Assembly: GCA_031384285.1 (NCBI GenBank)
Contig: JANNAJ010000264.1
Location: forward strand, 1-35,692
Direction of reading: 5' to 3'
Length of the DNA stretch: 35,692 nucleotides
Source: Verrucomicrobiota bacterium
GTDB lineage: Bacteria; Verrucomicrobiota; Verrucomicrobiia; Limisphaerales; UBA9464
Shown: in pieces, positions 15,002 to 18,184 of the stretch
How the letters are laid out: each line of letters starts with the position of its first letter
Position numbering within the stretch: the stretch's first letter is position 1
Position numbers and translations under genes: made by a program
Notes under the pieces: generated by a model
The model's input: the letters and a program-made list of their open reading frames with translations, nothing else
Told to the model about the DNA's origin: nothing
Databases searched by the model: none

Positions 15002-15345
15002 TCAGGCCGCTTTCGCCAGTTCTTCCTCGAAGTCCACGATCTCCTGGATCTGGACCAGGAACCAGCGGTCGACCTTGGTCAGGCCGAAGATCGCCTCGAT
15101 CCCGAAACCGGCCCGCAATGCGTGGCGGATGAAGAAGATCCGCTCGGCGTCGGGCACGGCCAGTTTCTGGCTGATCAGATCGCGCGGGAGGATGTCCCGG
15201 TCGCCGTACATCTCGGTGCCGATGCGCTTCATCGGCGTGGTCACCGGGGGGCGGCCCGGGGGAACTCCTCGAAGGAAGGCGAAGCGCGGGATCTTGGTCA
15301 CCACGTAGTCGTCGCCCGGCTCACGCAAGGAAGAGCGCGGCGTCC
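15002..15345 (-). pseudogene. carB: Remnant second copy of the carB 3' end (internally deleted and frameshifted)
   Basis: [12 protein letters not shown]...[42 protein letters not shown]...DFEEELAKAA* matches the end of the carB ORF. It lacks 111 bp (equivalent to 16908-17018) and has a GAAG duplication plus a 1-bp loss in 15228-15290. Confidence 0.9.
15014..15227. repeat. Direct repeat, copy 2 (214 bp; partner at 16694-16907)
   Basis: Ungapped hand alignment at an offset of exactly 1680 bp, with 16 mismatches in 214 nt (about 92.5% identity). Confidence 0.95.
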
Positions 15346-15366
15346 ACATTACCAGCCGGCATCACG

Positions 15367-16677
15367 TCAAGGATGGCTGCGGTAACGGCGCGGGAAAACG
15401 ACGCGGAACGTCGTGCCTGCTTCCGCCGAACTAGCGATCTCCAGGCTCGCATCCAGCAATTCACACAGGCGTTTCACGATCGAAAGCCCGATGCCTTCAC
15501 CGGGATGATGCTGGGATGATGCGGTCGGGGTGACGGGCTCTTCGGGCGATGGCAGCACCTGCGAGGTTTCCCCCTTGATGGCGGCGGACTTTTCATCGGA
15601 CTCCTTCGCGCTCGCTGTGGCTTCTTGCAAGCCGTCCACCATGGATGTGCCCGCGTCGGTCAACATTCCTGGACCTGTATCCTTGACCATCAGCCACCAA
15701 CTCTCCTTCTCCTCGCCCCAGTTCACGGTGACGCCGCCGTCCACGGTGTATTTGAGGGCGTTCACCAACAGATTCTTCGCCACGCGTCGGACTTTATCGG
15801 CGTCGCCCTCGACATCAAGATCCGCTTGCCCTTCGGCTTTTAGGAACAGCTTGCGTTCGTGCGCGAAGGGTTGATTGGCGTCGCACAGTTCCGTGATCAA
15901 TGCGCCGGCGTCGAATGCCGCGATCTCCCGATTTTCTTGGCCAGCTTCCAAGCGCGCCAGGTCCATCAATTCAGCCAGCATCGTGGTCAGACCTTGGGTG
16001 GCCCGCTGCAGGAACTTCGTCGCTTCCACCCGGTCGGCTTCGTCCATACCAGTCCGGCCGACCATCGTTGCCGCCATGCTGACGCCGAGAACGTCGCTGT
16101 TCAGATCGTGGACCGCCTGATGGATGAGCGCGGCGCGGCGCTGCTCGAGTTCATCCACCGTCGCCATGGCGCTCGTCAAGTCGACCACCCGGCTGGCGGC
16201 TTCCGCCTGCTGCATGCGCTCGTATTGGGCGGCGCTCTCGCCGATGGTGTCATTGATCAGGTGGAGCAGCTGGCGATGCGCCTCCAGCAACACCGCCGGC
16301 TCCAGTTCCGGATGCGCGGCGACGATGCTGCCCAGCTCTTCAAACACGCAGAGCTGGAGATGCCCGCATTCGCTGATGAGTTCCTTCAACCGGTAGCCCT
16401 GCTGCCAGCGATGCAACCCGTGCTTGATCCCTTCTTGCTTTTTTTCAACCTCGGCCGTCCGGGCGTCCACTCCGCCCGGACGGGAGCGCAGTCTGAGTCC
16501 ATAGGCGTCGAGGATGGCGGGAACGTGATCGAGGAACTGCCCGATCGTGAGCGCGCGCCCGGTCATCTGTTCCGGGTCGGCGCGATCCAGCTTGCGCCAA
16601 GTCGAAAGGATGGCTTCCCGCCGCGCCGCAAGGAGATCACTCAAAGCCACCAACTGCTGGCTCGGTGTCAGAGGCAT
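15367..16677 (-). CDS. Cytoplasmic sensor histidine kinase (RsbRD_N-like + HisKA + HATPase_c)
   Basis: N-terminal LLAARREAILSTW...HGLHRWQQGY (RsbRD_N-like); H-box AVHDL, N-box NLLVNALKYT, G1 VKDTGPG and G2 GEGIGLSIV; no transmembrane segment; more A/T-ending codons than neighbouring genes. Confidence 0.88.
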   Translation of the reverse strand: MPLTPSQQLVALSDLLAARREAILSTWRKLDRADPEQMTGRALTIGQFLDHVPAILDAYGLRLRSRPGGVDARTAEVEKKQEGIKHGLHRWQQGYRLKELISECGHLQLCVFEELGSIVAAHPELEPAVLLEAHRQLLHLINDTIGESAAQYERMQQAEAASRVVDLTSAMATVDELEQRRAALIHQAVHDLNSDVLGVSMAATMVGRTGMDEADRVEATKFLQRATQGLTTMLAELMDLARLEAGQENREIAAFDAGALITELCDANQPFAHERKLFLKAEGQADLDVEGDADKVRRVAKNLLVNALKYTVDGGVTVNWGEEKESWWLMVKDTGPGMLTDAGTSMVDGLQEATASAKESDEKSAAIKGETSQVLPSPEEPVTPTASSQHHPGEGIGLSIVKRLCELLDASLEIASSAEAGTTFRVVFPRRYRSHP

Positions 16678-16678
16678 C

Positions 16679-18184
16679 TCAGTGGCCGGAAGCCGCCAGT
16701 TCTTCCTCGAAGTCCACGACCTCCTTGATCTGGACCAGGAACCAGCGGTCGATCTTGGTCAGGGCGAAGATCTCCTCGATGCCGAAACCGGCCCGAAGCG
16801 CGTGGCGGATGAAGAAGATCCGCTCGGCATTGGGCACCGCCAGCTTCCGGCTGATCAGGTCGCGCGGGAGGATGTCCCGATCGCCGTACATCTCGGTGCC
16901 GATGCGCCAGGGCTTGCCGTCGCCGCCCAGGCCGCTGCGACCGATCTCGAGCGACCTCAGACATTTCTGCAGGCTCTCCTTGAACGTCCGGCCGATGGCC
17001 ATGGCCTCGCCGACGCTCTTCATCTGCGTGGTCAACGTGGGGTCGGCCTGGGGGAACTTCTCGAAGGCGAACCGCGGGATCTTGGTCACCACGTAGTCGA
17101 TGCTCGGCTCGAAGCTCGCCGGCGTCTCGCGCGTGATGTCGTTCCTCAGCTCGTCGAGCAGGTAGCCGACGGCGAGCTTGGCCGCGATCTTGGCGATGGG
17201 GAACCCGGTGGCCTTGGAGGCGAGCGCGGAGCTGCGGCTGACGCGCGGGTTCATCTCGATGATGACCATGCGGCCGGACACGGGATCGGAACCGAACTGG
17301 ATGTTGGAGCCGCCGGTCTCGACCCCGACGGCGCGGATCACGGCGAAGCTCTGGTCGCGCATGATCTGGTACTCCTTGTCCGTGAGCGTCTGGATGGGCG
17401 CGACGGTGATGGAGTCGCCGGTATGGACGCCCATCGGATCGAAGTTCTCGATGGAGCAGATGATGACGCAGTTGTCGGCCTTGTCGCGCATCACCTCCAT
17501 CTCGTACTCCTTCCAGCCGAGGAGCGATTCCTCGATGAGCACCTCGGAGACGGGCGAGAGGTCGATGCCGCGGCGGGCGATCTCCTCGAACTCCTCGCGG
17601 TTGTAGCCGATGCCGCCGCCGGTGCCGCCGAGCGTGTAGGCGGGCCGGATGATGAGCGGGTAGCGGCCGATCCGCTCGGCGACGGCGCGGGCCTCCTCGA
17701 GGTTGTGGGCCGTGCCGGAGATCGGCACGTCGAGCCCGATGGAGAGCATGAGGTCCTTGAAGACCTGGCGGTCCTCGCCGCGCTGGATGGCGTCGGCCTT
17801 GGCGCCGATCATCTCCACGCCGTGCCGCTCCAGAGCACCGCTGTGGTGGAGCTTCATGGCGGTGTTGAGCGCGGTCTGTCCGCCCAGCGTGGGAAGGAGC
17901 ACGAGCTTTCCGGTGGCGCCGAGGCGCGCCATCTCCGCCTTCTCGCGGACGATGATCTTCTCCACGGCCTCGGGCGTGATGGGCTCGATGTACGTGCGGT
18001 CGGCGAACTCCGGATCGGTCATGATCGTCGCCGGGTTGGAGTTCACCAGCACCACGCGGTAGCCCTCCTCGCGGAGGGCTTTGCACGCCTGGGTGCCCGA
18101 GTAGTCGAACTCGCACGCTTGGCCGATGATGATCGGGCCAGCGCCGATGATGAGGACGGAATGGATGTCAGTGCGCTTCGGCAT
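16679..18184 (-). CDS. carB: Carbamoyl-phosphate synthase large subunit, N-terminal half only (501 aa)
   Basis: [70 protein letters not shown] and [14 protein letters not shown]. It stops after IDRWFL...EEELAASGH, inside the oligomerisation domain. Confidence 0.93.
16694..16907. repeat. Direct repeat, copy 1 (inside the carB 3' end; partner at 15014-15227)
   Basis: Same alignment as copy 2. A second, more decayed block at about 17019-17125 matches about 15228-15345. Confidence 0.95.

Follow-up and report, generated by a model that had tools for sequence, protein, structure and literature searches.

The window, as the whole stretch of DNA analysed is called here, comprises 35,692 nucleotides (nt) of contig JANNAJ010000264.1 (assembly GCA_031384285.1) from a Verrucomicrobiota bacterium of the order Limisphaerales, lineage UBA9464; it is contig C63 of a metagenome bin, and the genome holding it is denoted G000 (G, L and C numbers stand for genomes, loci and contigs throughout). 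Its central feature is the 3' end of the carB gene, which occurs twice in the same orientation, once on the active gene and once as a remnant, with a histidine kinase gene between the two copies. The 3' end of the split N-terminal half of carB is an insertion hotspot in this order of Verrucomicrobiota, and it sits exactly at the point at which carB is split in the order. The locus is made up as follows, in positions of the window:

16679..18184, minus strand: active N-terminal half of carB (501 aa), with Pfam CPSase_L_D1, CPSase_L_D2 and positions 2-54 of the 80 of CPSase_L_D3
16679..17191, minus strand: the carB "tail" (carB nt ~994-1506), found again in the form of remnants throughout the order; the active copy ends in ...ELAASGH*
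15367..16677, minus strand: the cargo, an orphan histidine kinase of the cytoplasmic type (436 aa), with Pfam HATPase_c and, weakly, HisKA
15323..15366, minus strand: spacer of 44 bases between the kinase stop and the remnant, common to the window and genome G004
15218..15322, minus strand: remnant part A (carB nt 1075-1176), 84.9% identical to the active copy by blastn, with a compensated +4/-1 frameshift
15014..15227, minus strand: remnant part B (carB nt 1278-1491), directly after a 111-nt deletion and collinear with the active tail of genome G002
15002..15349, minus strand: open frame of 115 aa that spans the whole remnant and has the native carB end ...ELAKAA*
14479..14841, plus strand: hslR/Hsp15-like S4-domain gene (Pfam S4; NCBIfam Hsp15 below cut-off), convergent with carB and its native downstream neighbour
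18348..20072, plus strand: exosortase of the EpsH family (Pfam PF09721), divergent upstream neighbour, outside the mobile unit

The name carB, which a preliminary description of the locus had used, is right in that the gene encodes the large subunit of carbamoyl-phosphate synthase, but it applies to the N-terminal half of a split gene only. The protein matches NCBIfam NF003671 over positions 1-475 of the 1058 of the model, and its end falls within the oligomerisation domain, while the C-terminal half is found on contig C661 (D3 positions 58-80, D1, D2 and MGS). In the more distant relatives Chthoniobacter, Opitutaceae and Gemmataceae the C-terminal half begins some 250 nt beyond the N-terminal one, and carB is therefore unsplit there. 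The two neighbours of the window's carB, the exosortase gene upstream and the hslR-like gene downstream, are both kept in G002, G004 and G009.

The same description had placed a block of carB end and kinase upstream of a displaced older gene end, with the kinase ATG a single nucleotide after the carB stop, and the coordinates agree with this: the stop TGA occupies 16681-16679, one base follows, the kinase ATG begins at 16677 and the kinase stop lies at 15369-15367. As GC content at third codon positions is 0.76 in the kinase gene and 0.92 in carB, with GC dipping to 0.59-0.64, the composition suggests that the kinase is foreign in origin. The protein has sub-threshold PhoR/PnpS-like matches only in NCBIfam and no match in PADLOC. 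Homologues lie downstream of carB in G004 (93%), G014 (86%) and G009 (69%), whereas those of G003, G005 and G007 are found at other loci. A scan for promoters and terminators found nothing above chance, a result that assumes sites of the sigma-70 type and says little for this phylum, and the terminator-like hairpin at 15348-15336 does not exceed chance expectation either.

The two gene ends form a direct repeat in which 15014-15227 corresponds to 16694-16907 at an offset of 1680, with 93% identity or 16 differences in 214 bases, the same coordinates, offset and mismatches as first described. Farther upstream in the remnant, 15275-15322 corresponds to 17063-17110 (92%, offset 1788), and this part, which is covered by the repeat families D2, D5 and D12, carries a 4-base insertion and a 1-base deletion that cancel each other and keep the frame. 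Between the two parts 111 bases have been deleted in frame, between the similar 10-mers AGCGTCGGC and GCGCATCGGC. The greater damage ascribed to the upstream part is thus real, with its 111-base deletion and +4/-1 shifts, but its limit had been drawn too far out, as detectable homology to carB begins at 15322 and not at 15345. We read the 115-aa frame running through the remnant as a pseudogene.

An empty site, for which a search among relatives had been proposed, exists in G002, where carB is followed directly by hslR. The window is collinear with this site from 5121 to 15227 at 94.6% identity, and the alignment runs through hslR and its spacer into the remnant, which takes the place of the active tail of G002. 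Both the remnant and the carB gene of G002 end in ...AKAA* and continue with similar bases past the stop, so that the end of the remnant and its downstream spacer match those of G002, whereas the active genes of G000 and G004 differ from this native end in their last codons and then pass into the GATG of the kinase. Because of the collinearity with the empty site and the common AKAA* end and following sequence, the copy next to hslR is, by sequence comparison, the displaced native end of carB. A tandem duplication of tail and kinase with later loss of the second kinase is rejected for the window, as the ends of the two tails differ and the remnant runs into the native spacer.

The displaced end is decaying. 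When the 16 differences are polarised against eight orthologues, 10 changes fall on the remnant and 6 on the active copy. Five of the remnant's own changes are silent and five are non-synonymous at invariant or near-invariant residues (R446Q, N452D, E471A, I478V, K487Q), while the active copy has four silent changes and two at variable residues. The second copy had been taken for a diverged functional allele, an idea that does not survive this comparison, since half of the remnant's changes strike residues that vary little or not at all among the eight orthologues. More broadly, it is hardly credible that the second copy is a working part of the locus, be it as such an allele or as the template repeat of a diversity-generating retroelement. 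A working copy would agree with a 115-aa frame that has stayed open and with several amino-acid changes of a conservative kind, but besides the changes at conserved residues the differences are not confined to adenines, the window holds no reverse transcriptase, and the corresponding copy in G004 is far more decayed (69% identity). The retroelement in particular is rejected on the absence of a reverse transcriptase from the window and on differences of all kinds. Gene conversion that would keep the remnant fresh is likewise ruled out, because the remnant has none of the six derived states of the active tail. The remnants of G004 (L050 3230-3565) and of G000 (15002-15349) trace back to one event but show very unequal decay, at 69% and 92-93% identity to active tails, respectively.

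Repeated sequences of this kind raise the question of whether two strains have been joined in one metagenome bin. The bin consists of 776 contigs with 95% completeness and 3.9% contamination, and it contains a second allele of the carB N-terminal half on contig C495 (L002 1367-2365; 85% nucleotide and 89% amino-acid identity, unrelated upstream region), which breaks off with its contig at carB nt 999, precisely at the start of the repeated tail; this allele could be a co-binned relative or a paralogue. Fragmentation, contamination and a second allele that stops at the repeat boundary would all suit an assembly chimera, but such a chimera is nevertheless very improbable. Spanning of both junctions, proposed at the outset as a check, is provided by Logan contigs from two studies, one of which may be the source sample of the window: X1 (15282-15429), X2 (15282-15615) and X5 (15170-16213) cross from kinase to remnant, and X1 (16501-16723) and X2 (16387-16719) cross from carB to kinase. 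The short bridging contigs break inside the repeats, as is expected of repeated sequence. In the independent assembly of the sister species G004, carB, kinase (93%), remnant and hslR follow one another as in the window and the junctions and the 111-base deletion are identical, and a remnant with a deletion and a frameshift would be expected in no intact allele.

The arrangement is not confined to the window and its sister species, and both other cargo and longer arrays, for which a look at relatives had been suggested, are present in G009 and many further genomes. In G009 carB is followed by an ORF6N gene, a short tail piece, a DUF4760 gene with a pentapeptide-repeat gene, a tail piece, the kinase (69%), another tail piece and hslR; in G014 it is followed by an unknown gene and the kinase (86%), with no remnant. 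The last 168 residues of carB used as a query gave a match in 359 of 401 genomes of the order (a sample that includes one unpublished genome, G327, on which no other result rests) and at least three matches in 33 of them. Fifteen of these 33 were opened, and arrays of tail remnants near carB were found in 13: G048, G158, G159, G289, G136, G130, G098, G057, G319, G354, G028, G053 and G246. The remaining two have one small piece on another contig (G243) and no clear piece (G261). As the genomes had been picked for multiple matches, 13/15 is not a frequency. In samples picked without regard to multiple matches, 2 of 20 family relatives have them, and among 31 named loci remnants of at least ~100 nt occur in three and repeats of 23-24 nt in two more. 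L081, L082 and L096 likewise carry remnants. Tail fragments also occur tens of kb from carB or on other contigs (G319:C39 1-342 and 53389-53829; G098:C17 96102-96218; G057:C15 40977-41090; G243:C7 494443-494550), which might be explained by inserts of very large size, by tails that have rearranged with one another or by cassettes that have moved to other sites.

Within the arrays, carB-end remnants alternate with mostly defence-like cargo, with REP (repetitive extragenic palindromic) transposase units and with small repeat elements. The cargo includes AbiLi/AbiLii, HEC-01A-like and NsnB-like ATPases, ORF6N (PADLOC PDC-S05), DUF6932 (PDC-M63A), an Mrr-type type IV restriction enzyme, a type II restriction-modification pair, and Fic, AbiU2 and PIN proteins; fragments of the IS630 and IS66 insertion sequence types are found in some arrays. 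The coupling seen in the window recurs, in that the cargo ATG lies no more than 10 nt past the tail stop in eight distinct cassettes, to which the window and G004 add two more. In the kinase copy of G009 (L048 6478-6520) the ATG reads ACG, the frame opens at a TTG two codons on, and the preceding remnant has lost its stop through a 1-nt deletion, so that this copy, judged from its reading frame, may be inactive. The ORF6N family is a recurrent cargo at the hotspot in G009, L082 and L085, and an ORF6N-domain gene is also found at the start of the window itself, at 35-607 on the minus strand beside a gene for a fumarate reductase/succinate dehydrogenase flavoprotein.

The 5' ends of the remnants are not spread evenly along carB. 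About 11 lie at nt 994-1024, about 11 at nt 1062-1086 and nine at nt 1343-1386, no remnant starts upstream of nt 994 in 26 array loci, and the boundaries fall at about four positions rather than at one. At the first two clusters carB adjoins at least seven and at least six unrelated flanks on the cargo side, respectively, and around nt 994-1011 the likeness of the cargo side to carB extends to a variable degree just upstream of the boundary. Inspection of the four clusters by eye gave no convincing common motif besides a 12-nt similarity between the boundary positions a and c (AAGCTCGCCGTC and AAGCTGGCCGTG).

Some junctions recur as ready-made modules. An ORF6N stop followed by a tail from nt ~1378 is found in both G009 and L082, and a REP hairpin end joined to nt ~1070 is found in G159, G136 and G158, with a degenerate relic in the window and in G004. 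The 44 bases at 15323-15366 align with the conserved flank that abuts carB nt 1070-1075 in these three genomes (best stretch 16/19 bases), where this flank adjoins a REP-associated tyrosine transposase; they are thus probably the degenerate relic of the end of a REP/hairpin element. Because its module recurs in distant families, together with the REP relic, the sequences place the remnant junction of the window as older than, or at least independent of, the kinase. For the idea that the arrival of the kinase displaced the old gene end this means that the native end has been displaced, as proposed, but that the duplication may predate the kinase.

The structures could also arise locally, if fragile points of the tail were prone to template switching or to breaks with a wide stagger that duplicate the tail and trap gap-filling DNA. 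Local replication or repair errors of this type would account for the clustering of boundaries, the likeness of positions a and c over 12 nt and the star-like relation of the window's two tails, and the 111-nt deletion between similar 10-mers shows that slippage does occur here. This origin is nonetheless improbable. The ORF6N module at nt ~1378 is common to G009 and L082, and the REP end at nt ~1070 to G000, G004, G159, G136 and G158; the same junction modules in different families indicate transfer rather than local error. The cargo, moreover, is foreign and defence-like, and the active and native gene ends differ in their last codons.

What is duplicated in each case corresponds to a homologous fragment carried by the insert. 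Regular cassettes duplicate carB from the boundary to the stop. In G038, however, carB nt 1-1344 is followed by a 201-aa frame and then by carB from nt 1003 to the end, so that nt 1003-1344 is present twice, and the REP transposase unit of G159 and G158 lies between a carB piece that ends at nt 1223/1227 and another that starts at nt 1070/1072, a duplication of nt 1070-1225. A duplication equal to an arbitrary carried fragment is the mark of single-crossover homologous integration. The sole crossover that could be placed is in G009, between nt 993 and 1059: the carB genes of G000 and G009 differ at 25 sites in nt 1-1058 (2.4%) and at 50 sites in nt 1059-1503 (11%), and by eye, 10 of 12 sites of the distal remnant of G009 look G000-like in the alignment. 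Since the active tail diverges from nt 1059 on while the distal remnant is G000-like, the whole tail has been replaced in this genome. A mosaic foreign tail on the active gene of G000 is not supported, as the tail evolves faster by a factor of 2-4 in G000, G002 and G004 alike and the four tails have a star-like relation. The freshest remnant available, in G354, is 96-98% identical to its own active tail.

No recombinase accompanies the arrays. The absence of an integrase from the locus, as first described, holds for all 24 coding-like frames of the window that were scanned for integrases and recombinases. A former integrative element with its integrase, which had been feared to lie at this site in relatives, is not found on the array contigs either: tyrosine recombinases (PF00589) are on no remnant-bearing contig in 10/10 genomes, serine recombinases (PF00239) on no array contig in 5/5 genomes, and neither type is among 33 cargo frames of the arrays. 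The 101 frames within ~4 kb downstream of carB in the 31 named loci include one tyrosine recombinase, 1.6 kb downstream of carB in L080, which is rejected as the missing recombinase for want of a tail repeat of at least 20 nt near it. No viral contig encodes a relative of the tail, and a phage or satellite as carrier is rejected.

Genes for REP-associated transposases of the Y1 type lie directly beside remnants in three genomes (L068 10260-11041, L071 8900-9706 and L165 6270-6644, in G159, G158 and G319 of two families). The Y1 units of G159 and G158 have two flanking hairpins (GCGGCATTTATGCCGC and GCGGCGTGAACGCCGC), and in G319 the transposase gene and a remnant lie on a 305-kb contig without carB. 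REP transposase genes are nevertheless found inside three arrays only, and we know of no mode of action of IS200/IS605 or REP transposition that yields duplications of 120-500 nt. Hairpins of the G159 type number zero in G000, though three homologues of the Y1 transposase are encoded there.

A small repeat element with the terminal inverted repeats GGGGAGCRCRCGCGCC is found inside the active carB frame between residues ~85 and 93 (L072 791-876, L082 4076-4188, L096 9197-9278, L162 616-742 and L158), where it adds 80-125 nt; protein alignments pass through it with 10-21 extra residues. The same element splits tail remnants, typically with carB nt 1166 or 1208 joined to nt 1231.

Of the two nearest known cases, one is icd of Escherichia coli with prophage e14 (and phage 21). 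There, e14 is reported to bring a replacement 3' end for the gene, the old C-terminal fragment persists as the pseudogene icdC at the far side, and excision rejoins the two parts of icd (PMC13626634). The carB locus resembles e14/icd in that the 3' end of the target is duplicated, with a surrogate on the gene and the native copy displaced. It differs from it in that no integrase lies between the copies: e14 is a prophage with its own integrase that excises site-specifically on SOS induction, whereas no element genes were found here, repeats are up to 0.5 kb long, the cargo comprises one gene or a few, and several insertions have piled up at one site.

A site-specific origin would call either for surrogate-end elements of the e14/icd type that later lost their integrase or for non-autonomous cassettes moved by a recombinase encoded elsewhere. 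Several observations speak for it, namely the junctions in narrow carB windows with many unrelated flanks, the variable likeness to carB on the cargo side at nt 994-1011, as in attachment-site mimics, the tyrosine recombinase downstream of carB in L080, and the precedent of tycheposons, which are reported to accrete in tandem at tRNA genes with the newest next to the target (bioRxiv 10.1101/2020.12.28.424599). Set against these are the lack of tyrosine and serine recombinases on array contigs and of a tail repeat near the L080 integrase, the repeats of 120-500 nt, which far exceed usual attachment sites, and the internal duplications that truncate the upstream carB copy (G038, the REP unit), which make no sense for an element that restores its target. 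On balance we consider site-specific integration, including that by a recombinase acting from another part of the genome, less likely than not but a serious possibility.

The reading we favour, albeit with slightly less than even confidence, is integration by homologous recombination, with the conserved carB end serving as portable homology. Each incoming cassette would bring its own copy of the tail, the final 0.12-0.5 kb of carB, and because cargo would be joined to this copy, carB would stay intact and the cargo frame would often start no more than 10 nt past the carB stop, from where it may be expressed from the carB promoter. The previous tail would be pushed downstream and decay there, and repeated events would build arrays in which the cassette that arrived last adjoins carB. 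Of the cargo in the window, only the kinase survives; the remnant is the native tail, and the 44-nt relic would be what is left of an earlier cassette. Two routes can be envisaged: a circle with tail and cargo could integrate by a single crossover, or a linear tail-cargo-tail fragment could pair both its arms with the single tail of the recipient during DNA uptake. Neither would need a recombinase on the element, and the cassette might also be able to excise. Homologous recombination fits the absence of recombinases and the spread of ready-made modules.

Several points weigh against it. Clustered remnant 5' ends with unrelated flanks are not predicted by random formation of circles followed by homologous recombination, which leaves independent junctions in the same narrow windows unexplained; the clustering instead indicates a cut with a preference for certain sites or a recombinase that acts from another part of the genome. 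At 92-95% identity, the two tails of G000 and those of G002 and G004 are related in a star-like way, and a foreign origin of the active tail in the window rests on the last 4-5 codons only. The linear route presupposes DNA uptake by these bacteria, neither a circular nor a free form was observed, and no viral contig carries the tail. Finally, most of the genomes are metagenome bins, in which repeats break contigs, as at the end of C495, or can misjoin them.

Whether the arrays as a whole amount to a recombinase-free cassette system, in which a housekeeping gene end of 0.12-0.5 kb acts as the homology arm on both sides of the cargo, can be put forward only as a tentative possibility, and comparison with known systems shows what would set it apart. 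Campbell-type insertion-duplication is similar, as the insert there is flanked by a duplication of exactly the fragment that it carries, and internal duplications that truncate the upstream copy are among those seen at carB. To our knowledge, Campbell-type and merodiploid cases are a laboratory tool or large transient duplications and not a natural, order-wide stacking of small cassettes. In pneumococcal transformation, a partly repeated donor fragment is reported to give rise to duplications by alternative pairing (PMC3784515).

Tycheposons, the other of the two nearest cases, form tRNA-flanked islands in Prochlorococcus by repeated integration at one target, with newer elements pushing older ones outward, and scattered partial copies of the target, degraded remnants and defence or niche cargo are reported for them (bioRxiv 10.1101/2020.12.28.424599). 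Stacking at one conserved target, remnants and defence-like cargo are common to the carB arrays; tycheposons, however, encode tyrosine recombinases and insert at tRNA genes, of which short partial copies stay behind, whereas the target here is the end of a protein gene and the array contigs of 10 genomes lack a recombinase. Integron arrays consist of compact, mostly promoterless frames alternating with a recombination sequence, with the newest at the entry and one upstream promoter presumed. The cargo frames at carB similarly alternate with a repeated unit, but there is no IntI next to the array and the repeat is a segment of carB coding sequence. An integron at the window locus is rejected, as the upstream neighbour is an exosortase and the repeats are carB coding sequence, attC-like folding not having been run. 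Defence hotspots of E. coli and Pseudomonas aeruginosa are reported to hold variable defence cargo at a fixed site between core genes (PMC10121019). The carB site is similar in this respect, but E. coli cargo is said to ride on recognisable mobile elements, and a duplicated end of the flanking gene is a feature of the carB arrays that lies outside the E. coli hotspot description. What sets the carB arrays apart is the combination of no adjoining recombinase, coding repeats of 0.12-0.5 kb, single cargo genes coupled to the stop, occasional internal duplications and the site at the split point of carB. Our literature searches found no account of a hotspot at the carB end or of such arrays.

How defence and sensor genes reach hotspots without mobile-element genes is an open question for which the carB locus is a tractable case: one well-conserved gene end serves as the entry, each event leaves a datable scar in the form of a displaced tail, and such scars recur order-wide, in Verrucomicrobia that have been little studied. 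Should the tail work as a portable arm of homology, genes could flow between distant relatives without a dedicated recombinase, and cargo would be wired into a housekeeping transcript. Any genome of the order that bears carB could then take up a cassette by its own RecA, with carB left intact and the cargo on the carB transcript, which would make the system an equivalent of the integron that works by homologous recombination and is located where carB is split. If instead a recombinase encoded elsewhere cuts at the clustered positions, an undescribed site-specific system exists. The position of the hotspot at the split point may also bear on how carB became split in these bacteria.

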